From an uncultured Clostridia bacterium (GTDB lineage: Bacteria; Bacillota_I; Bacilli_A; RF39; UBA660), in contig CAMJWT010000001.1 of assembly GCA_946409545.1 (NCBI GenBank), positions 71,483 through 135,482 on the forward strand: a DNA stretch of 64,000 bases, written 5' to 3'. Position numbers and translations under genes: made by a program. The notes beneath the pieces were generated by a model. The model searched no databases. It was given only the letters and a program-made list of their open reading frames with translations, and had not been told where the DNA came from. Below are positions 40,407 through 64,000 of the stretch, piece after piece (position 1 is the first letter of the stretch; every line of letters begins with the position of its first letter).

Positions 40407-42554
40407 ATGAAAGAAGAATTATTAAAAGTTTTAGAAACAAAGCTAGATAGTATTAATAAAAACATTGAGTCCTTAGATTTAATTAATACTAGATTAAATG
40501 GAGAAGAAGAGAATCTAAACTATGTACAACAAATTCTTGGATATTTTAAAAATGAAGAAGATGGTTATGATATTAATAGATTTTCTTTGTTAGATAAAGA
40601 GAATTTTAATAAATGTTTAGAATTAGTACCAGATTCTACAAAAGGTAAGTTTCAAACTAATAGTTGTAATTATGATGGTCTTGTTTATTTAATAAATGGT
40701 ATCAATAATGGTATTGCTCTTACTTTAACGGAAGAACAACAACAAGCTATTGAATTGATGATTAATGGCCTTAGTGATAAGAAAATTGATTATCAAGCTA
40801 GAATAGATGGTATTAAGTTAGCAAGAGATAGATTAGAAGTTAGTGATCCTAATGCCTTAGAATTATCTAAAGAAAAATATCAAAGTATTGTTAATGAACT
40901 AAATAATAATGATTATATTTCAGAAACTGATGATGTCATTAATGCTATTAACTATTCTAATGTTGAGCAAAATAAAGTTGTTGATATGTTAAGTTATTTA
41001 TTAAAATATAATGCTGACATTTATAATGAAAGAGTAGAAGTAGGACTACAAAATCCAACATATGTTGCAAATGAAGAGGTTCAACAAGTTGTTCCTACTG
41101 AAGAAGTTTATGAAGCTCCAGTTGAAACAAATATGGAAATGCCTGTAGATGTCCCAACAGAAGAAGTATATGAAAATCCTCAAGAAATGGATTTTATGCC
41201 TACTGAAGATTATGAAGAAGTTAGTGCTGAGGAAACAGAAATACCTCAAGAAGAATCTGTTCCTCTTGAAGTATATCAAGAAACTGAAGTTCCAGCAGAT
41301 GTTCCTGTTGATAATACTGAAGTAGAAACACCTATCGAAACAGCTGTTTCAGAAGAAGTACAAGAAGAAATTAATAAATTAGTTACTGAAGAAGAACCAG
41401 AAGAATATCAAAATAGTGAATTAGAAATTACACCAGCTCCTCTTGAAGTAGAAGCACATAGTGACATGATTAATAAAGATGAATTAGATTCTTTATTACA
41501 GGGTTATCATATTAAACTAGATGATGAATTTGATGATAGCTTATTATATGGTGATATTAATAATTATCGTGATATTTTAGATAATCTTCGTAATCAAGAT
41601 GTTTTATCAACAATTAGTAAAAATCAAATATTACTAAAAAATATCTTAATTTATTCTAATAATGAATTAATTGATAATGTTCTTGAAATAATTAGAAATG
41701 ATTTTTCTATCGATGATGATGATTATGTAGAAACAGCTAAGATTACAATTGATACATTACCAGCAATCTTTGTTAATGAACCAATTGGAACATATGATAA
41801 TTTTATTCGTAATGTTGAAATGTTTAAGAGATTAAACTTCGATATGATTAACTTATTTGATTTTAGTAGAGAATTATTAGTAGTTGATAATAACTTACTT
41901 GAAAGTAATTATCAATTAGTAAGTAGATATGATATTAATATTGATGAAAAGAATGCTAAGTATTTACTTGCAATTCCAAATGTTGTTGAAAGAATGGATT
42001 ATTATGTTGAATCTTTATATGATGATAAGATTACTAGAAAGACATTTGATGGTATTAATATTATTAGAATGTATCCAAGTAAACTTGATACTGTAACAGA
42101 TTTAACGATTAAGAGATTGCGTTATTCTAGTGAGAATGGTAAGAAGATGTTTGGTTCTCGTGAAAACAGTATTTCTGGTGAAGTTGCTAATTTAAAAGTA
42201 GATGTTTTGAATATCCCTGATAATTATATGGCTTCATTCTTCAATAATGAATTTGATGATATAACTGGTGAAGAAATAACTTCATTTGAACAAATGCTTC
42301 TAGCTAATAATAATTATCAATTTGTTGAAGATGAATTATTACAAAAATTAAATATGTATCGTGATGGATTAAGATATTCAATTGAAAATGTTAATGTTTC
42401 TTATAATAAAGTATTAAGAAATTACAATATTTTAATTAATAATAATATTGATCCACAAAAAGCATTAGAATTCGCAGTATGTTATAACCTTGTTATTACC
42501 AAAGATGAATACATTAAAGTAAAAAATGTTTTAAATACATTGGGAGGTAAATAA
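40407..42554 (+). CDS. Hypothetical large acidic protein with a central Glu/Pro/Val-rich low-complexity region
   Basis: 715 aa. Start is 2 nt after the upstream stop. Central region '...VPTEEVYEAPVETNMEMPVDVPTEEVYENPQEMDFMPTEDYEE...'. Confidence 0.5.
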   Translation: MKEELLKVLETKLDSINKNIESLDLINTRLNGEEENLNYVQQILGYFKNEEDGYDINRFSLLDKENFNKCLELVPDSTKGKFQTNSCNYDGLVYLINGINNGIALTLTEEQQQAIELMINGLSDKKIDYQARIDGIKLARDRLEVSDPNALELSKEKYQSIVNELNNNDYISETDDVINAINYSNVEQNKVVDMLSYLLKYNADIYNERVEVGLQNPTYVANEEVQQVVPTEEVYEAPVETNMEMPVDVPTEEVYENPQEMDFMPTEDYEEVSAEETEIPQEESVPLEVYQETEVPADVPVDNTEVETPIETAVSEEVQEEINKLVTEEEPEEYQNSELEITPAPLEVEAHSDMINKDELDSLLQGYHIKLDDEFDDSLLYGDINNYRDILDNLRNQDVLSTISKNQILLKNILIYSNNELIDNVLEIIRNDFSIDDDDYVETAKITIDTLPAIFVNEPIGTYDNFIRNVEMFKRLNFDMINLFDFSRELLVVDNNLLESNYQLVSRYDINIDEKNAKYLLAIPNVVERMDYYVESLYDDKITRKTFDGINIIRMYPSKLDTVTDLTIKRLRYSSENGKKMFGSRENSISGEVANLKVDVLNIPDNYMASFFNNEFDDITGEEITSFEQMLLANNNYQFVEDELLQKLNMYRDGLRYSIENVNVSYNKVLRNYNILINNNIDPQKALEFAVCYNLVITKDEYIKVKNVLNTLGGK

Positions 42555-51611: not shown

Positions 51612-52324
51612 TGAAAATCCTTGGTTTCAATTTAAAAATGAATCTCCTTCCCCATGAAATAGATGATTATATCAAGGAAATAAAAAAGAATAAGTTAGAT
51701 AATACTATTTTCTTTCCATCCATCATTTATATTGAGAAATTTAATAATAATCAAATAACTGTTGGCTCCCAAGATATCGCTTTTAATAAAAATGGAGCTT
51801 ATACAGGGGATGTATCTATTTATCAATTAAAAGAATTAGGTATTAAATATAGTATTGTTGGCCATTCTGAAAGACGAGCTAATTATTATGATGATCGTTA
51901 CGTTAATAAAAAAATCAAACTATGTATTGATAATGATGTAACCCCATTATTATGTGTTGGTGAATCTGGTGATGAAAATAGTAAAAATGAAACATATTAC
52001 ATATGTATAGATGAAATCAATAAAGCTTTTGTTGGCAATGATAATTTAGATAAAGTTATCTTAGTTTATGAACCAATATGGGCTATTGGCAGTGGAAAAA
52101 CACCAACTAATGATTTTATTGACGAAATTGTTTCTAATATAAAAAAATACGTGTATAATAAATATGGAGTTAAGTTGAAAGTACTATATGGTGGAAGTGT
52201 AAGTGATGAAAATATTTCAAAACTTATCCAGATAGATAGTGTTGATGGTTTTTTAGTAGGTGGAAGTTCACTAAAGACAGAATCTATTAAAAAAATGATT
52301 GATATTGTAGGGGAGAATAGGTAA
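51611..52324 (+). CDS. tpiA: Triosephosphate isomerase
   Basis: Has 'VGHSERR' and 'YEPIWAIGSGKT'. ATGA overlap with pgk. Confidence 0.9.
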   Translation: MKILGFNLKMNLLPHEIDDYIKEIKKNKLDNTIFFPSIIYIEKFNNNQITVGSQDIAFNKNGAYTGDVSIYQLKELGIKYSIVGHSERRANYYDDRYVNKKIKLCIDNDVTPLLCVGESGDENSKNETYYICIDEINKAFVGNDNLDKVILVYEPIWAIGSGKTPTNDFIDEIVSNIKKYVYNKYGVKLKVLYGGSVSDENISKLIQIDSVDGFLVGGSSLKTESIKKMIDIVGENR

Positions 52325-52812
52325 TGAAGAAAAAACGTCATCAAAAAGGAATAAAAGATAGAATTACAAGATTTAAAAGAAGAAAAGACAAAGAAAAGCG
52401 TAAACAAGAACGAATTTATTCTAATGTGTTACTAAAAATGATTGATATGTATGAGCCAAATGGTGAGGATTGGATGGGCTTTAAGCTTACAGACAATAAT
52501 ACATATACTTTCCATCACATTCGCGAAAGAAGAGTTGGTGGTAAAGAAGAACTTGAGAATGGTGCTATTTTAACCCATTTTGGTCATCAATTTTTAAATC
52601 ATCTTGATTCTCATAACAAAAGAGCTTATAACGATTATCAAGCAATTTTTAGAAGAATTAATAAATCTCGTGGACCTATTGATGATGATTTAAGAGAAGA
52701 TATCTATGGTATGATGTTAGATACCTTCTACTATAATGAATATGGTTTATCTAAAGAAGTATTACAGTATTATGAACCATTTCTTGAAAAACCTAAAGTT
52801 AAAAAATTGTAA
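52324..52812 (+). CDS. HNH-like nuclease-family protein (no zinc-binding Cys pairs), translationally coupled to tpiA
   Basis: Has 'YTFHHIRERRVGGKEELENGAILTHFGHQFLNH', an H-H..GG..N..H..H pattern. Very basic N-terminus. TAATG overlap with the tpiA stop. Confidence 0.4.
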   Translation: MKKKRHQKGIKDRITRFKRRKDKEKRKQERIYSNVLLKMIDMYEPNGEDWMGFKLTDNNTYTFHHIRERRVGGKEELENGAILTHFGHQFLNHLDSHNKRAYNDYQAIFRRINKSRGPIDDDLREDIYGMMLDTFYYNEYGLSKEVLQYYEPFLEKPKVKKL

Positions 52813-52846: not shown

Positions 52847-53548
52847 ATGAAAAATATTTTATTGTTATCAAATGATAGCAGTTTTATGGAATCTTTTAAA
52901 GACTATGTTAAAGATAACTCTTTTTTTAAATTTAGTTTTAATAATTCCATAAAAAAAATAGTAATTAATAATTATGATTTAATAATAATTGACTATTTTA
53001 TGAGTGAATATGATGGATATGATTATTTAAAGATAATTAATAATAAAATAAAGGTTATTATTTTACTCCCTTATTATATAGATGATGTAATTAAAATGAT
53101 TTCATCTTTTAATATTTCTTATATCTTAATAAAACCTATAATTTTTTCTAATTTATTAGATAAAATTGATATTATTTGTAATAATAAAAGAAATTATAAA
53201 GAGGTTATCGATAAAGAGATTCTTAAATTATTTAGTTTTTTAGGTTTATCTTTTAAATATCGAGGTGTTTATTTATTATATAGAACAATTTTTCTTGTTA
53301 TTAATGATAATGTCCCGATTAATATAGATTTATATAATATTTTATCTAAAGAATGTGGCGATACTAAAGAGTCAATAGAACGAAATATTAGATATTCAAT
53401 TCAAGTATCTTGCTCAAGAATGAGTCCATCCATTATAGATGAATTCTTTGGTAATATTTATAATCAATATACTGGTTTAATAGGAAATCTAGAATTTATA
53501 AATGTTATTGTTAAAAATATAATAATTATGATAAATAAAAAAGACTAA
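52847..53548 (+). CDS. Spo0A-like response regulator with a partly degenerate receiver domain
   Basis: C-terminal 'GLSFKYRGVYLLYRTIFLV.NDNV...LYNILSKECGDTKESIERNIRYSIQVSCSRMS' matches the Spo0A_C pattern G-x-P-x-x-IKGY-YL..AI....ND...TK.LY..IAK....T.SRVERAIRHAIEVAWSR. The N-terminus resembles a receiver, with 'DLIIIDYFMSEYDG' and 'ILIKP', but has N-D-S in place of the acidic D-D pair. Confidence 0.5.
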   Translation: MKNILLLSNDSSFMESFKDYVKDNSFFKFSFNNSIKKIVINNYDLIIIDYFMSEYDGYDYLKIINNKIKVIILLPYYIDDVIKMISSFNISYILIKPIIFSNLLDKIDIICNNKRNYKEVIDKEILKLFSFLGLSFKYRGVYLLYRTIFLVINDNVPINIDLYNILSKECGDTKESIERNIRYSIQVSCSRMSPSIIDEFFGNIYNQYTGLIGNLEFINVIVKNIIIMINKKD

Positions 53549-53553
53549 TATTA

Positions 53554-54822
53554 TTAGTCTTTTAATTTTATTTTTCCACTTGCAAGTTTTCTTTTATAGA
53601 ATGAATATATTAATGGATTAATAACTAAATCTAATTCACCAATATATTCAATAATTGAAGAATTATATCCACTTTTATTCTTAATTGCTCCAAAGTATTT
53701 ACTTGCCTTATTAAAGTTACCAGGAACAGATCCTAAATCAATGTATGAATACCCTTTTTTACCATAATATTTCATTATTTCATATGTTGTTAATGGTAAT
53801 GCATTTAAATTTTTATGTTCAGGTACAACATAATTAGAAACAATTGTTGCTCCTTTACCACTAGTTATAACTAGTGCTGCTCCAATAATTAAACCATCAG
53901 GATTATTTCTAATTAGATTCATAGAAATACTTAGATTACTTTTTAATTCAGCAAGTTTTTTATCAGATTCAATTTTGTCATTTATTACAAGTTGCATATT
54001 ATATTTTCTAGCATCAGACTCGGAAATAATATTAGCTAAACTATTATTTTTTTCTATTTCTGCACTATAAAGTTTATTAATATTCTCAGTATACTTTTGT
54101 GTATCTAAGAAAGTAAAAAAGATTTGTGCATTATCTGTTTCATCAAAAACATTAAATAATGTTTTAATAAACTTAACATTTTTTCCTTTTATTATTCTTT
54201 TGGTAACATCTAAGAAAAAGTTAATATCATTTTTAGAATCAGGAATTACTGTTAATGCTTTCTTTTGATCTAGAGTTATTTCTTCTTGTCTCTCTTTAGA
54301 GAATGACATAAATAATGTTTGAGGATTTGGATCTAATTTTGCATAAGAAGAAAATCTTGGTAACATATTTTCATTATATAAGTTAAATCCCATATGTTCG
54401 TAACTGTTTTTCTTAAAATTTCTAAGAATTTCTTTAGATGATTCACTATCTACTTCGTTATCTCCTAAAGAATCATATTTACGATAAATAATAGGGGGAT
54501 CTATTTTTATAAAAATAAATTTTTGTTTCTTTAATAATCTTTTTAATGCCTCTGTCAATTGTCTACAAAGTGATAGATCAGAATAATCTATTAAGAATCC
54601 TCGTGGTGCGTAAGCATATTTATAGCCCCACAAGATTTCTTTATAAACTAGCATTGAAGCTCCAACAATAACGCCATTATCTTTGAATCCTAAATAGTGT
54701 ATATCATATCCTTCTAGTTCTGCCTTTAGATTAGCATAATTAGATGTTTGACAATATGATGCATACTTATGATTAAGTGAGTACTGATCAAATTCTTCTT
54801 TAGATAAAGTAATTATTCTCAT
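53554..54822 (-). CDS. FemAB-family peptidoglycan branch aminoacyl-transferase
   Basis: 422 aa. Has the FemABX two-GNAT-lobe layout with a central coiled-coil insertion. Confidence 0.7.
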   Translation of the reverse strand: MRIITLSKEEFDQYSLNHKYASYCQTSNYANLKAELEGYDIHYLGFKDNGVIVGASMLVYKEILWGYKYAYAPRGFLIDYSDLSLCRQLTEALKRLLKKQKFIFIKIDPPIIYRKYDSLGDNEVDSESSKEILRNFKKNSYEHMGFNLYNENMLPRFSSYAKLDPNPQTLFMSFSKERQEEITLDQKKALTVIPDSKNDINFFLDVTKRIIKGKNVKFIKTLFNVFDETDNAQIFFTFLDTQKYTENINKLYSAEIEKNNSLANIISESDARKYNMQLVINDKIESDKKLAELKSNLSISMNLIRNNPDGLIIGAALVITSGKGATIVSNYVVPEHKNLNALPLTTYEIMKYYGKKGYSYIDLGSVPGNFNKASKYFGAIKNKSGYNSSIIEYIGELDLVINPLIYSFYKRKLASGKIKLKD

Positions 54823-56928: not shown

Positions 56929-58407
56929 ATGAAAAAGATAATCGAATTTTTTAAGAAAATATTTGCATGGATATTATCTTTATTCTTAGATAGAAAACAT
57001 CTAAAAAAGAATAGAATGAATAAAAAACGTGTTTATGCACATGAAGTAAGTAGTAAAGCTGTTCCCGTAAAAGAATTTAGTCATCGTGATGAAGATATGG
57101 GAAGTGCGCATGTTATTAAGTCATATCCATATACAGAAGCTAAAGAATTAAAATCTATTGTTGAATTAGTTGAAGAGTTAAAAGAGAAGATTATTAGTGA
57201 ACCTGATATTGAAAAGAAAGTTGATAGCAAAGAATTAGCTGAAACAATAAAGAAAATTGATGAAATAAAAGAAGTAGTTAATAAAAATTTAACGGTTATG
57301 CAAACAGAGGAAATTAAAGAGATTTTGCATGAATCAATTAAAGATCCTGAAGTTAGTGTAACAAAAGAAGAAAAAATAGATAAAATAAAGAAAGATATTA
57401 ACGAAGTAGTTGATAATAAATTAGATAAACATGAAAAAGATTTAATTGAAAAAGCATGTGAAAAATATGAGAAAGTAAATTATGTTATCGCTACAACAGT
57501 TGAGATAGAAGAAATCGAAAAAGATTTAAAAGACTTAGCAGATGAAATAAAAGTTAATAATCATAAGAAAAATTATTATGTCGATAAAATTAATGAAATT
57601 AAAAAGAAGATAGAAAGACTTCAAAAAATTAATAAGATACCTTCTGTTTATGAAGAACTTGAAAGATTAAAAGAAGATTTCTATACTAAAGAACATGATA
57701 AATATGACTTATTATATAATAAAGAAGTTTTTATTAATTTAGATCAACAATGTGATGAATTATTAGAAACTATTGAAACAAGAGAAAAAGAACAAGAAGT
57801 TATTAAAGTAGAACAAAAAGAAGCAAGAGAAGAAAGAGAAAGAGAAGAACATCAAAAAAGAGTTGAACAAGAACAACAAAGAGAAGAGGAACGAGAAAGA
57901 CGCCAAGCAGAAAAAGATGAATATATTGATAACATTATCAAAAGATATCGAGATTTAAAAATCGCTGCTGATTTAATCTCTACAGGAATTATTTTTCATG
58001 CTTTAAGGAAAAAGAATAAATCAATAGTTCAAGTATTACAAGATGATTATGATGATTTCTTGCGTGGTGAAGATGCTCCTTTTGAATTTGATCGAAATAG
58101 AAGGAAAACCGAAGTTGCTGTTCTTTATAATAATCTTTTAGAAACCTTAACAGGATATCAAGGATTACCTTTTGAACCTGTTATGCATATTAATTATCCA
58201 TATCAAAACTTATTAGAGGAAACTTTAGCGGTTAAAGATACTGTTGATCGTATGACAACAGCAAAAACCGGACATGATATGGTTATGGATGAAAAGTCAG
58301 TAATGGTATCTGATAAATTAAATTCTGAATTAACGATGGAAAAAGAAAATAATAGAGCTAAAGGTAAAGTTGATAAAGTATTAATTAGAAAAGTGGGAGA
58401 ACAATAG
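56929..58407 (+). CDS. Hypothetical Glu/Lys/Arg-rich coiled-coil protein
   Basis: 492 aa. Has 'REEREREEHQKRVEQEQQREEERERRQAEKDE'. The N-terminal hydrophobic stretch is a possible anchor. Confidence 0.45.
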   Translation: MKKIIEFFKKIFAWILSLFLDRKHLKKNRMNKKRVYAHEVSSKAVPVKEFSHRDEDMGSAHVIKSYPYTEAKELKSIVELVEELKEKIISEPDIEKKVDSKELAETIKKIDEIKEVVNKNLTVMQTEEIKEILHESIKDPEVSVTKEEKIDKIKKDINEVVDNKLDKHEKDLIEKACEKYEKVNYVIATTVEIEEIEKDLKDLADEIKVNNHKKNYYVDKINEIKKKIERLQKINKIPSVYEELERLKEDFYTKEHDKYDLLYNKEVFINLDQQCDELLETIETREKEQEVIKVEQKEAREEREREEHQKRVEQEQQREEERERRQAEKDEYIDNIIKRYRDLKIAADLISTGIIFHALRKKNKSIVQVLQDDYDDFLRGEDAPFEFDRNRRKTEVAVLYNNLLETLTGYQGLPFEPVMHINYPYQNLLEETLAVKDTVDRMTTAKTGHDMVMDEKSVMVSDKLNSELTMEKENNRAKGKVDKVLIRKVGEQ

Positions 58408-58450: not shown

Positions 58451-58915
58451 ATGAAGAGATTTGTATTTGTTTTATTAATATTATTATTCATAACAGGCTG
58501 TGGTAATAAAGAAGAAGTACCTAAAGGTGATATTCTTGATTTTGATGTTCCTGAATCATTATCTAATTACTATGAATATGATATGTTTAGATATCATTTA
58601 AATATTCGATCTAAATATGAAGGAAAACCATATAATAATACAATCTTTTCGTTTGTTTTAAATAATAGTCAAGGAATGTATTTATTTAATTATAATCAAA
58701 TAACTAAAGATGATATTAATAAAGATTTATACCAAAGTAAAATAGTATCTAATAATAAATTATTTATGTACTATATTCTAGATGATACTATTAAGATTAT
58801 CTATGATATTGATAGTAACTATTACTTACAATTATCCATAAAATCACTTAATAGTGATATAAATGATATTGAAGAATTATTTAATTATTTTGATTTTGAT
58901 ATAACCATAATATAA
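58451..58915 (+). CDS. Hypothetical small lipoprotein
   Basis: Has the lipobox 'LFITGC'. 154 aa. Confidence 0.5.
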   Translation: MKRFVFVLLILLFITGCGNKEEVPKGDILDFDVPESLSNYYEYDMFRYHLNIRSKYEGKPYNNTIFSFVLNNSQGMYLFNYNQITKDDINKDLYQSKIVSNNKLFMYYILDDTIKIIYDIDSNYYLQLSIKSLNSDINDIEELFNYFDFDITII

Positions 58916-60100: not shown

Positions 60101-61273
60101 ATGAAAAGAATGAAGATTGGATTATTTACAGATGCCTTTTTTCCTATGACAGATGGTGTCGGCATGGTCGTTCATAATTATGCAAAAAATTTGAATAAAT
60201 TTGCTGATGTAATTGTTTTTTGTGCAAAGTATAAAAAGATGTTTGATGATTCTATATTACCATATAAAGTAGTTAGATGTTCATCAATTAAAATGCCAAT
60301 AATTGATTATTCTTTACCAACGCCAGATATCGATTACAGCTTTATTAAAGAATTGGATAAATATGAATTAGACATTGTTCATATTCATTCACCATTTACT
60401 TTAGGAAAACTTGGTTTAAAGTATGCTAAAAAACATCATTTGCCTGTAGTTGCAACAATGCATAGTCAATATAAACAAGATTTTATGCGTGCAGTTAAAT
60501 TTGAAAATATGGCTAGTGTTTTAACTAAAGTAATTGTTGATGTTTATGATAAATGTACCGAATGTTGGGCTGTAAATACTGAAGTGGCGCGAATTTATTT
60601 TGAAGAATATGGGGTAAAAAAGATGCCACGTGTTATGAATAATGCAACGGAAATGATGCCATTAGAAGATAAAGAAAAAGCTAAGAAATTAATAAATCAA
60701 AAATGTCATCTTGACGATAAAACAAAAGTCTTTCTTTTTGTAGGTCGACTAAATAATTTAAAAAATATTTTTTTCATTGTTGATGTTATGAAATTAATAA
60801 AGAAGAATAATAAAAATTTAGATTTTAAAATGATTTATGTTGGTGAAGGACAAGATGAAAAAGAATTAAATAAAAGAATAAGTGATAATAATTTAGATGA
60901 AGATATTATCGTCTATGGAAAAGTTGATGATCGTGAATTATTAGCATCGTTTTATTGTAGAGCCGATTTATTTATTTTCCCATCTATGTATGATGCTTCA
61001 AGTATTGTTCAAATAGAAGCAGCTTCTCAAGAGACCCCAGGAATATTTGCTAGTGGATCTGCCACTTCAGCTACAATTGCTGATAATGTTAACGGTTTTA
61101 TTGAAGAATTAGATAGTAACAAGTTTATGAAGCGTATATTAAATATTATAAGTGATGAAAAAAAATTAAAGATTGTTGGTAAAAGAGCTTATAAAGATTT
61201 GTATGTTAATTGGGATAATAGAATTAAAGAAGTATATCATCGTTACCAAGAATTAGTTAAAGATAACAAGTAG
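60101..61273 (+). CDS. GT4 family glycosyltransferase (possible diacylglycerol glycosyltransferase/glycolipid synthase)
   Basis: GT-B fold with a C-terminal E-x7-E-like region ('IVQIEAASQETPGIFA'). N-terminus resembles known DAG glucosyltransferases. Confidence 0.6.
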   Translation: MKRMKIGLFTDAFFPMTDGVGMVVHNYAKNLNKFADVIVFCAKYKKMFDDSILPYKVVRCSSIKMPIIDYSLPTPDIDYSFIKELDKYELDIVHIHSPFTLGKLGLKYAKKHHLPVVATMHSQYKQDFMRAVKFENMASVLTKVIVDVYDKCTECWAVNTEVARIYFEEYGVKKMPRVMNNATEMMPLEDKEKAKKLINQKCHLDDKTKVFLFVGRLNNLKNIFFIVDVMKLIKKNNKNLDFKMIYVGEGQDEKELNKRISDNNLDEDIIVYGKVDDRELLASFYCRADLFIFPSMYDASSIVQIEAASQETPGIFASGSATSATIADNVNGFIEELDSNKFMKRILNIISDEKKLKIVGKRAYKDLYVNWDNRIKEVYHRYQELVKDNK

Positions 61274-61299
61274 GTGTACATTTGTACACCTCTTTTTTT
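61272..61299 (+). terminator. rho-independent terminator
   Basis: aggtgtaca-tt-tgtacacct followed by T7. Confidence 0.55.
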
Positions 61300-61398
61300 A
61301 TTGTTATTTAACGATATATCTATAAAAAATATTATTTTCTTTTTCTTTGTTATTTTAAAAAAATAATTAGTAACTTTTGGTGTAACAAGGAGGTATAG

Positions 61399-64000
61399 AT
61401 GAAAAAGTTACAAAAATTATTTTTAATTCTTATCATTTTATTATCAATGAAAGTATCTGCAAAAGAATATAGTGAAACTTTTATTGATAAAGCTAATTGG
61501 ATAAGTGGAGATTATGTTAACAAAGAGAAAGGAGGCAGTAAAAAATATCAACAAATGTATACTATCAAAAGAAAAAGTGATGGTAAGTTTGTATATTGTA
61601 TTGAACCAGGAGTATCGATTAAAGATGGAAAGATAATTAAAGGTTATGATGAAGATTATTTAGATGTTACCAAGTTCACTACTGAAGAATGGGATCGGAT
61701 AACTAAACTTGCGTATTATGGTTATGGTTATAAAGATAATAAATATGATCATACAGGGATTCATTGGTATACGATAACGCAATTTATGATTTGGAAGACG
61801 GTACCTAATGGTTATAATATCTATTTCACAGATAAATTAAATGGTAAAAAGATTGAAAAATATAATAAAGAAATGAAAGAGATGGAAGATATTTTAAGTA
61901 CATATCATATGTTACCATCATTTCATAATAAAACATTTAAATATTTAGTTAATGATAAAAAAGAGATTATAGATAATAATAATGTTTTATCTAGTTTTAA
62001 TCTATTAACAAAAGGCAATGTATCTATTAATGATAATAAATTAGTAATTAATAATAACAATGTAGGAACATTCCAATATGAGTTATCAAAATCATATAAT
62101 CGTTATGGTAATATTCCGATTGTTTATATTGATAGTTCATCACAAAATTTAATGAGTGTAGGTGATATTGAATCAAGTAAATCAATGGTAAAAATAATAA
62201 TTAATGATACAAAAGTAGTTGGGCATAAACTAGATAGTGAAACAATGGATAATAAAGGATTAGGAGAAGCAACTCTATCTGGAGCCGTTTATGGAATATA
62301 TGATAGTAATGATAAATTAGTTGAAGAAGTAATAACAGATAATAAGGGGGAATTTATAAGTAAATCATTACCATCTTATGGTAAATATTATATTAAAGAA
62401 ATAAAAGCATCGAATGGTTATAATTTAAATTCAAATAAATACTATTTTGAAGTATCAGAAACTAATTCTTTTCCAATAATAAACTTATACGAAGATGTCA
62501 TAAGAGGTAAACTAGAAATAACAAAATATTTATCATCAATTAATAATGGTAAAACATTTGAAAAAGACGCATTATTTCAAGTATTTGATAAAAATAATAA
62601 ATTATATAAAGAAGCTAAAAGTGATAGTAATGGTTATATTTTATTTGATTTACCTTATGGAAGTTATACTATTAAGCAAAAAAGTACAACTAATAATTAT
62701 AAAATGGTTGATGATTTTAAAGTTAGTATAACGAAAAATGAAATAATTAAAAAAGAGCTTATTGATGAATTAAAAGAAGCAAAGATCAAATTAATAAAAA
62801 GGGATTTAGAAACCAAAGAAATAATAAGAAAAGAATTAACTTTTAAAATATATGATATAGATCATAAAAAATATTTATGTGAGAATGATAATTGTACTTT
62901 TAAAACAAATAAAGATGGTTATTTTATAACAAATAAGGCTTATTTATATGGTAATTATCAAATAGAAGAACAAAATGAAAATTTAGATAATTATTATTGG
63001 AATAGTGAAGCATTATTTTTTAAAATTGATGATAATGTTAAAGATAAGTTAATAATTATTGATTTTTATAATAAAGAGATTAAAGGTAGTTTAGAATTTA
63101 CCAAATTAGATTTATCTACAAGTGAACCACTTCCTAACACCCTAATGGAAATATATGATATAAATGGAAATATTGTATTTAAGGGAAGAACTGATAATAA
63201 TGGCAAAATCAAAATTTTTGATTTGCCTTTCGGCAAATACTATTTAAAAGAACTAGAAGCCCCCCAAGGTTATATGGTTAATGAAGAGGTGATGGAATTT
63301 GAAATAAAATCTGATGAAATTGTTAAAAGTATGATGAAAGATGAAAGAAAGTTAGGAAAAATAAAAATAAAGAAAATAGGCGAAGAACCTGTAATAGATA
63401 ATGGTTATACATATGTTGATAAAAAACTAGCTAATGTATCATTTTCATTATTTGCAAGAGAAGATATTATTTTAAATAACAAAATAATCTTTAAAAAGAA
63501 TGATTTAGTTTATCAAGGCATAACTAATGAAGAAGGTGAACTATTAATCAATGATTTAATAATAGGTAAATATTACTTAAAAGAAGATAAAACTTTAGAA
63601 GGTTATCTAATTGATGATAAAGAATATGATTTTGAAATAAATAGTAATGAAGAAAAAGAAATTGTTGTTAAAAACTACTTAATAAAAGGTAGTATGGAAT
63701 TTACGAAAACTAGTTTTTCAACAAGTGAACCGCTTCCTAATACTTTAATGGAATTTTATGATAATAATGATAATTTAATTCTTCGTGATAGAACTGACTC
63801 TAATGGGCAAATTTTAATAAATTCTCTTCCTTACGGAAGTTATTATTATAAAGAACTAGAAGCCTCCGAAGGTTATTATGTGAATCCTGATAAACACTAT
63901 TTTGAAATTAAAGAAAATGGGGTAGTAGTTAAAGATAATTTAACTGATGATATGATTATTGTTCCTGATACTTATAAAGATAGTAATAACAATTATTTTA
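61399..64000 (+). CDS. Surface adhesin (3' end lies outside the window) with a putative N-terminal thioester domain followed by Cna-B/prealbumin-like repeat domains
   Basis: AAGGAGG RBS. Signal peptide 'MKKLQKLFLILIILLSMKVSA'. 'FVYCIEPG' and 'TITQFMIW' resemble the Cys and Gln motifs of Gram-positive thioester domains. Repeated 'TDxNGxIxIxxLPxGxYYxKELEAxxGY' is the Cna-B pattern. The frame stays open to the window end. Confidence 0.5.
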   Translation, partial: MKKLQKLFLILIILLSMKVSAKEYSETFIDKANWISGDYVNKEKGGSKKYQQMYTIKRKSDGKFVYCIEPGVSIKDGKIIKGYDEDYLDVTKFTTEEWDRITKLAYYGYGYKDNKYDHTGIHWYTITQFMIWKTVPNGYNIYFTDKLNGKKIEKYNKEMKEMEDILSTYHMLPSFHNKTFKYLVNDKKEIIDNNNVLSSFNLLTKGNVSINDNKLVINNNNVGTFQYELSKSYNRYGNIPIVYIDSSSQNLMSVGDIESSKSMVKIIINDTKVVGHKLDSETMDNKGLGEATLSGAVYGIYDSNDKLVEEVITDNKGEFISKSLPSYGKYYIKEIKASNGYNLNSNKYYFEVSETNSFPIINLYEDVIRGKLEITKYLSSINNGKTFEKDALFQVFDKNNKLYKEAKSDSNGYILFDLPYGSYTIKQKSTTNNYKMVDDFKVSITKNEIIKKELIDELKEAKIKLIKRDLETKEIIRKELTFKIYDIDHKKYLCENDNCTFKTNKDGYFITNKAYLYGNYQIEEQNENLDNYYWNSEALFFKIDDNVKDKLIIIDFYNKEIKGSLEFTKLDLSTSEPLPNTLMEIYDINGNIVFKGRTDNNGKIKIFDLPFGKYYLKELEAPQGYMVNEEVMEFEIKSDEIVKSMMKDERKLGKIKIKKIGEEPVIDNGYTYVDKKLANVSFSLFAREDIILNNKIIFKKNDLVYQGITNEEGELLINDLIIGKYYLKEDKTLEGYLIDDKEYDFEINSNEEKEIVVKNYLIKGSMEFTKTSFSTSEPLPNTLMEFYDNNDNLILRDRTDSNGQILINSLPYGSYYYKELEASEGYYVNPDKHYFEIKENGVVVKDNLTDDMIIVPDTYKDSNNNYF
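63091..63900 (+). repeat. Tandem coding repeats (~600-bp period) for Cna-B-like modules
   Basis: Near-identical DNA 'acaagtgaacc(a/g)cttcctaa(c/t)ac' at about 63118 and 63721. Protein level: 'FTKLDLSTSEPLPNTLMEIYD' versus 'FTKTSFSTSEPLPNTLMEFYD'. Confidence 0.45.

Follow-up and report, generated by a model that had tools for sequence, protein, structure and literature searches.

The final open reading frame in the 64,000-nucleotide stretch of contig CAMJWT010000001.1 analysed here (the window) begins at an ATG at position 61399 on the + strand and runs off the window end at position 64000. We conclude that this gene encodes a chromosomal surface adhesin of the TIE type (thioester, isopeptide, ester family) from an uncultured, low-GC gut member of the Bacilli, and we estimate the probability of this reading, including the mechanism set out below, at roughly 0.78. 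The parts of the protein follow one another in the order signal peptide, Class II thioester domain (TED) and six SpaA/CnaB-type stalk domains, and a non-canonical sorting signal stands near the C-terminus. The domain identity and fold, the conservation of key residues, the anatomy of the sorting signal and a conserved pairing of the adhesin gene with a sortase gene support this conclusion directly. From these features we infer that thioester and isopeptide bonds form, that a sortase cleaves the signal at VPDT|Y and that the cell wall is the acceptor. The adhesin itself is a further member of the known Class II TED / TIE family, and annotation pipelines already recognise such proteins; an ortholog with 88% identity carries the NCBI name "Cys-Gln thioester bond-forming surface protein".

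The thioester domain comprises an upper lobe and an inserted beta-sandwich and extends over approximately residues 22-270 (61462-62208, + strand). The Pfam TED model (PF08341) matches residues 65-155 at 33.8 bits (E=4.6e-8), above its gathering score of 22, and homologs carry a precomputed match to the same model. A search of the PDB with the single sequence matched the stalk and not the TED, and therefore a profile of homologs was built to reach 6fx6, the TED of SaTIE from Staphylococcus aureus. This profile was made from an alignment of the first ~285-300 residues of 35 homologs (285 residues of the window protein) at 28-90% identity, and it matches 6fx6 over nearly the whole domain with an E-value of 3e-20. 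An AlphaFold2 model computed from the same alignment has a pLDDT of 89.4 and a pTM of 0.78, and when the TED model was submitted to Foldseek, 6fx6 was ranked first (E=3.8e-12) and 6fwy second (2.6e-5). In Class II TEDs a beta-sandwich of ~75 residues is found between helix alpha3 and strand P, and the bonding Gln lies ~170-200 residues past the Cys (PMC6194298). The corresponding distance from Cys67 to Gln249 in the window protein is 182 residues. The profile match, the model, the Foldseek ranking and this spacing together assign the domain to Class II, and the original prediction that the N-terminal region would model as a TED is borne out.

The bond-forming residues of TEDs are found in a [YFL]CΦζ motif and in a weak ΦQζΦΦ motif, the Gln of which is located on strand Q (PMC6194298). 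A third motif, TQxxΦW on helix alpha2, contributes a Gln and a Trp that adjoin the thioester and are not essential to form it (PMC6194298). Cysteine occurs in the adhesin at positions 67, 494 and 499, so that Cys67, found in the sequence YCIE (codon 61597-61599), is the sole Cys of the TED; it is the predicted thioester cysteine and is invariant in all 35 homologs of the alignment. The predicted glutamine partner is Gln249 in SSSQNLM (62143-62145), which is invariant in the same alignment. The two residues align to Cys296 and Gln467 of SaTIE (C47 and Q218 of the 6fx6 chain, which has a four-residue tag offset), the pair that forms the SaTIE thioester (PMC6194298). The third motif is represented by TQFMIW (residues 127-132; 61777-61794), in which W132 never varies among the aligned homologs and Q128 is conserved to 90% or more. 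The original prediction had taken FVYCIEPG as the Cys motif and HWYTITQFMIW as the Gln motif. The first is present at residues 64-71 and its Cys is the one that aligns to SaTIE Cys296. The second, at residues 122-132, is indeed characteristic of TEDs; the Gln in it, however, does not form the bond, a role predicted for Gln249 instead.

The region that follows the TED is matched by the Pfam SpaA model (PF17802) over six stretches with a total of 263.5 bits, and six domains were delimited. The SdrD_B model also scores above its cut-off (36.5 bits) and is weaker than SpaA. The modules of Cna-B/SdrD B type that had been described from the sequence are therefore real. In the PDB sequence search the stalk is matched by BaTIE of Bacillus anthracis (6fwv) with an E-value of 8.9e-38, and the six domains were aligned with two isopeptide domains of BaTIE. 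The first three domains are D1 (residues 271-369; 62209-62505), D2 (residues 370-460; 62506-62778) and D3 (residues 461-561; 62779-63081), all SpaA/CnaB-type. They are followed by D4 (residues 562-652; 63082-63354), by D5 (residues 653-761; 63355-63681), which is a longer SpaA-type variant with insertions, and by D6 (residues 762-854; 63682-63960), a paralog of D4 that lies within the region matched by PDB entries 3rkp and 3kpt (residues 760-855). In D4 the residues Lys569 and Asp648 fall on K353 and D433 of the 6fwv chain, which are Lys384 and Asp464 of BaTIE, and the catalytic Glu of BaTIE has its counterpart in the Glu of YYLKE. The isopeptide bond between Lys384 and Asp464 of BaTIE was seen in electron density (PMC6194298).

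Judged against Lys384, Glu443 and Asp464 of BaTIE, the Lys column is kept in six of six domains and the catalytic Glu in five of six. The Lys, Glu and Asp-or-Asn positions are all present in D1, where both Pfam SpaA and the BaTIE alignment identify the domain, and in D3 through D6, with some ambiguity in the C-terminal Asp/Asn column for D1 and D6. Since D2 has a Gln (YTIKQ) in place of the catalytic Glu, formation of an isopeptide bond in this domain is doubtful. D3 contains an inserted loop, CENDNC (residues 494-499; 62878-62895), that carries Cys494 and Cys499, the only two Cys outside the TED; these may form a disulfide or a metal site. The "RTD.NG" repeats of the original prediction do occur and are confined to two modules, D4 and D6. 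These two form the best pair among the domains and share 67% identity in DNA and 59% in protein, so that a claim of two modules nearly identical at the DNA level does not hold; a repeat search that included Tandem Repeats Finder, together with direct alignment, found nothing closer than 74% over 87 nt. The length of the homologs ranges from 675 to 1371 residues among those listed, through gain or loss of stalk domains, and the 675-residue homologs lack equivalents of D4 and D5.

The top PDB sequence matches are deposited as "Collagen adhesion protein", which would suit a non-covalent, collagen-binding MSCRAMM of the Cna type. These matches, however, cover the stalk domains alone, the 6fwv entry is BaTIE and the label is historical. 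The N-terminal domain is a TED, no Pfam collagen-binding (CnaA-type) domain was found in the protein, and full-length BaTIE was found to bind neither gelatin nor collagens I-IV (PMC6194298). A collagen-binding MSCRAMM is thus barely credible. The NCBIfam matches on the adhesin were also disregarded as below threshold or short and spurious: those to NikL and SpaH/EbpB are far below their cut-offs, and a type IX secretion system (T9SS) tail-domain model scores above its cut-off (29.9 vs 23) but spans just 42 residues within a stalk domain.

The window contains 867 of the ~883 codons of the gene, as judged from orthologs with 96% (P0001) and 88% (P0002) identity, both of which are 882 residues long. 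The sorting motif, VPDTY, is found at residues 855-859 (63961-63975) with predicted cleavage after Thr858. It is followed by the start of the C-terminal tail, KDSNNNYF (63976-64000), which represents the first eight residues past the motif. The ~16 residues missing from the window would comprise a hydrophobic stretch and KKILL. In the alignment to two orthologous contigs (L001 and L003), the tail of the ortholog reads ...YFIYLIGGLYVFIKKILL, and the C-terminus of the 96% ortholog, ...VPDTYKDGNNYFIYLIGGLYVFIKKILL, has both the hydrophobic segment and the positive tail of a sorting signal. Both 882-residue orthologs terminate in ...IIVPDTYKDGNNYFIYLIGGLYVFIKKILL. The sorting motif or anchor had been expected beyond the window, with LPxTG to be sought downstream; the motif is already within the window, and the ortholog C-termini show VPDTY, without the Gly. 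The VPxT core is conserved at ~25-30 residues from the C-terminus in 120 adhesin homologs (P0001-P0120). The residue after the Thr in these proteins is Gly in 44, Glu in 27, Tyr in 19, Asp in nine, Leu in four and Phe in three, and Ser, Asn, Lys and Ala also occur. Because this fifth residue varies across the homologs, VPDTY represents one state of a position that is relaxed throughout the family and not a one-off mutation.

In the contigs that carry the orthologs (L001-L004), a gene for a 169-residue sortase overlaps the 3' end of the adhesin gene by 29 nt. The sortase gene occupies L001:12621-13130; transferred to the window, its start codon would be expected ~20 nt beyond position 64000. 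Among 84 loci, 72 sortase homologs were found, nearly all of them immediately downstream of the TED gene and overlapping its end; where the homologous sortase is complete (~70 loci), it almost always lies no more than 400 nt downstream of the TED gene. The sortase passes the Pfam Sortase model (PF04203; 48.9 bits vs 26.6) and has the eight-stranded beta-barrel fold. The NCBIfam models for classes C, D, E and GN matched, and the class cut-offs were not reached (class C 50.4 vs 160; class D 46.5 vs 165).

To our knowledge, all solved sortases have a His-Cys-Arg triad. The cassette sortase keeps His95 and Cys156 without exception, but has Gln163 where the Arg would be, seven residues after the Cys on strand beta8. 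In an alignment of 37 representative sortases, His95 and the TC of TLxTC are invariant and the Arg column contains Gln in 33 and Arg in four. All 72 cassette sortase homologs were then divided into 65 with Gln, four with Arg, one not resolved by the pattern and two that are incomplete. The sortase profile aligns Gln163 without gaps to Arg178 of Clostridium perfringens SrtD (CpSrtD) and to the Arg in SKRYVV of B. anthracis SrtA. An alternative alignment, in which the Lys before the Gln would be matched with the catalytic Arg, was rejected: with Gln paired to Arg, no gap is needed either from the TC motif (C+7) or up to the "EL" that follows; the Lys is replaced by Asn in the source-organism ortholog; and 65 of the 70 complete cassette sortases carry the Gln. 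The best 120 database matches to the sortase profile include 65 of His-Cys-Gln type and 55 of His-Cys-Arg type, so that the Gln type makes up a sizeable part of a family whose other members retain the Arg. The four Arg-type cassette sortases pair with MPxT[FY] signals. A second, longer sortase homolog of the Gln type (230 residues) is encoded ~7 kb downstream of the cassette at two loci (L016:18637-19326 and L027:19209-19898), with no TED adhesin directly upstream.

The unusual signal and sortase bear on the main rival to our reading, in which the same adhesin is not anchored to the wall. VPDTY would then be degenerate, the Arg-less sortase would be dead or otherwise employed, and the protein would be shed or would stay in the membrane through the hydrophobic segment at its C-terminus. 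This is in keeping with the lack of Gly in the motif and with the Gln at the catalytic Arg position of the sortase, as efficient catalysis by sortases requires the His as well as the Arg (PMC4498605). Additionally, TIEpLS20, which is also a Class II TED adhesin, functions without any sortase. Such decay is difficult to reconcile with a VPxT core whose distance from the C-terminus is constant across 120 homologs, or with overlapping adhesin and sortase genes that have been retained across dozens of species-level genomes. The His and Cys of the sortase never vary, and 65 of 70 cassette sortases, with identities as low as ~27%, share the Gln itself, a pattern that argues for selection on an active site rather than decay. 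We regard a membrane-tethered or shed adhesin as rather unlikely.

With the wall-anchored adhesin as the preferred reading, the following mechanism is proposed. The protein would be exported via the Sec pathway and its 21-residue signal peptide removed. The Class II TED would fold, and Cys67 and Gln249 would condense autocatalytically into an internal thioester, with Gln128 and Trp132 of TQFMIW packing alongside. The six SpaA/CnaB-type Ig-like domains, five of which appear to keep the isopeptide Lys, Glu and Asp-or-Asn positions, would form a rigid stalk that holds the TED away from the cell. The small dedicated sortase would cut the VPDTY signal, which is followed by a short hydrophobic segment and KK, after Thr858, and the cleaved protein would be joined to a peptidoglycan precursor. 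A target nucleophile such as a Lys amine would then attack the thioester to give a covalent intermolecular bond, by analogy with SfbI and fibrinogen, which provide the precedent for covalent capture (PMC6194298). A FemAB-family gene in the window (53554-54822, - strand) is consistent with a peptidoglycan cross-bridge as the acceptor.

A further reading is that the protein is not a monomeric wall-anchored adhesin but belongs to a pilus, as a subunit or at the tip, and that a pilin-type (class C-like) sortase polymerises it. The adhesin, however, has no YPK pilin motif and scores 30.7 against a cut-off of 95 with the SpaH/EbpB pilin model, and the sortase has no DP[FWY] lid. No further pilin gene flanks the pair in L001-L004, where the neighbours are glycosyltransferase and ECF transporter genes. 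A role in a pilus is accordingly considered highly unlikely.

Several points weigh against the wall-anchored, covalent adhesin as we propose it. The Cys67-Gln249 thioester is predicted from an alignment to a solved structure, and D2, which does not have the catalytic Glu, may be uncross-linked. The sorting signal is not LPXTG: it has Val for Leu and Tyr for Gly and resembles LPXTG just in the P-x-T core, and the hydrophobic tail is short (~13 residues). The sortase gene lies outside the window and is placed there from the contigs with the 96%- and 88%-identical adhesins, and because the enzyme has Gln in place of the catalytic Arg, one cannot take for granted that it is active. The host binding put forward in the original prediction is an assumption, as nothing in the sequence points to the binding target of the TED, and BaTIE, a close structural relative, has no known target (PMC6194298). 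Taken as a whole, the original prediction of a covalent surface adhesin is supported in part: the call of a TED adhesin is correct, and its details on the Gln, the repeats and the anchor do not hold.

The signals at the start of the gene were read from the sequence. A ribosome-binding site, AAGGAGG (61387-61393), is located 5 nt before the ATG. Residues 1-21 (61399-61461) form a putative Sec-type signal peptide, as had been claimed, with a KK n-region, a hydrophobic core and a VSA|K cleavage site (MKKLQKLFLILIILLSMKVSA|K) identified by eye; in the AlphaFold2 model this region contains an N-terminal helix at residues 2-15 with lower pLDDT. An intrinsic-terminator hairpin with a T-run (61272-61291, + strand) is found at the end of the preceding GT4 glycosyltransferase gene. 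The hairpin has an 8-bp stem with 4 GC pairs, and 0.0 such hairpins were expected in shuffled sequences. Because the preceding gene ends in this terminator, the adhesin gene begins its own transcription unit.

The GC content is ~23-34% throughout the window, and the genes upstream of the adhesin are housekeeping or chromosomal genes that include rpoB, rpoC, pgk, tpi, a gene for a Spo0A_C-domain protein and the FemAB-family gene. Other upstream neighbours encode a CtpB-like S41 protease, an NAGPA-family phosphodiester glycosidase and the GT4 glycosyltransferase. The upstream synteny is the same in the contigs with the 96% and 88% orthologs, except that the GT4 gene is absent from the 88% contigs. 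Downstream of the adhesin in the orthologous contigs an ECF transporter, a permease and uvrB are encoded, and this synteny is also conserved. The Spo0A_C-domain gene (52847-53548, + strand) adjoins the FemAB-family gene, which lies on the opposite strand, and the receiver domain of its product falls below the Pfam cut-off (24.1 vs 30.2). Four open reading frames in the window have no Pfam match at E<=0.001: 40407-42554 (715 residues), 52324-52812 (162 residues), 56929-58407 (492 residues) and 58451-58915 (154 residues). The latter two are conserved at the same position in L001.

In two of the orthologous contigs a TraB/PrgY/GumN-family gene (L002:7915-8934 and L003:7924-8943) is located ~2.4 kb downstream of the adhesin-sortase pair, past three ECF-transporter genes. 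This gene is one of the observations that would fit an adhesin for cell-to-cell contact (mating-pair formation or aggregation) that binds bacteria and not host tissue, in the manner of TIEpLS20. TIEpLS20 is a Class II TED adhesin that is required for conjugation in liquid, and the targets of Class II TEDs are generally not known. No other conjugation-related genes are found near the TraB/PrgY/GumN gene in either contig, and there are none among the called genes of the window and L001-L004. The setting is instead a chromosomal housekeeping block with conserved synteny, and the sorting signal and sortase found here are absent from the TIEpLS20 system. A function in contact between bacteria is unlikely on this evidence.

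We return, then, to the chromosomal, sortase-paired adhesin, for which at least 558 related loci were found in a TED profile scan with one genome per species. The best TED identity was 46% among the matches listed, and the loci come mostly from gut metagenome-assembled genomes (MAGs) labelled Bacilli, Erysipelotrichaceae, Tenericutes or Mollicutes. The lineage is thus partly labelled Tenericutes or Mollicutes in MAG records, yet it encodes FemAB and a sortase; the presence of the FemAB-family gene together with the sortase suggests a walled organism despite these labels. As an adhesin the protein adds little, as Class II TED TIE proteins have already been described and structurally solved. It is likely to be the principal adhesin on the surface of an uncultured gut lineage about which little is known, and is of modest interest in that respect.

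The potentially novel point is limited to the anchoring system, that is, to the VPxT-X signals and the sortases with Gln for Arg. The adhesin may belong to a widespread two-gene cassette in uncultured gut Bacilli, in which a small dedicated sortase that fits no matched NCBIfam class would process a Class II TED adhesin with a "VPxT-anything" signal (Tyr here) by means of a His-Cys-Gln active site, and we hold this to be possible rather than probable. A search of the literature on Arg-less sortases and on VPDTY or VPNTx signals found nothing relevant, and with its incomplete coverage this is weak evidence of novelty. If active, the Gln sortases would constitute a new subclass, with loose specificity for the residue that follows the cleaved Thr. 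Such enzymes would be a natural test of the "essential" Arg, the role of which has long been debated, and could give protein engineering a ligase with a different leaving-group tolerance.

Among the closest known systems, BaTIE (also BasC or BA5258; 6FWV) from B. anthracis shares the architecture of signal peptide, Class II TED, CnaB-type isopeptide domains and sorting signal. The likeness extends to the stalk match noted above (8.9e-38) and to the conserved isopeptide Lys and Asp. SaTIE (S. aureus; TED PDB 6FX6; Miller, Banfield & Schwarz-Linek 2018, PMC6194298) shares just 17-18% sequence identity with the window protein. Its TED begins at residue 254 and its stalk includes ester domains, whereas the TED here directly follows the signal peptide and is carried on a stalk of six SpaA-type domains. 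Sortase anchoring has been reported for SaTIE (PMC8092201); the signal here is VPDTY. SfbI-TED and Cpa of Streptococcus pyogenes (PDB 5A0L and 2XI9; PMC4450167) have Class I TEDs that lack the ~75-residue beta-sandwich insert, and Cpa is a pilus tip protein.

TIEpLS20 (p34 of the Bacillus subtilis plasmid pLS20; PMC8092201) is likewise an adhesin that combines a Class II TED with CnaB-type domains. Its gene, however, is part of a conjugation operon on a plasmid, and the protein lacks a sorting signal and does not depend on a sortase, whereas the adhesin in the window is chromosomal and paired with a sortase. For the sortase, the best PDB sequence match to the cassette profile is CpSrtD (4D70; E=2.5e-20). 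CpSrtD is likewise a small dedicated sortase encoded in the same operon as its single wall-anchored substrate, which carries a non-standard LPQTGS signal (PMC4498605). CpSrtD has the canonical His109, Cys171 and Arg178 and its substrate has Gly after the Thr, whereas the cassette sortase has Gln at C+7 and its partner adhesins have Tyr, Phe, Glu, Asp, Leu, Ser or Gly after the Thr.

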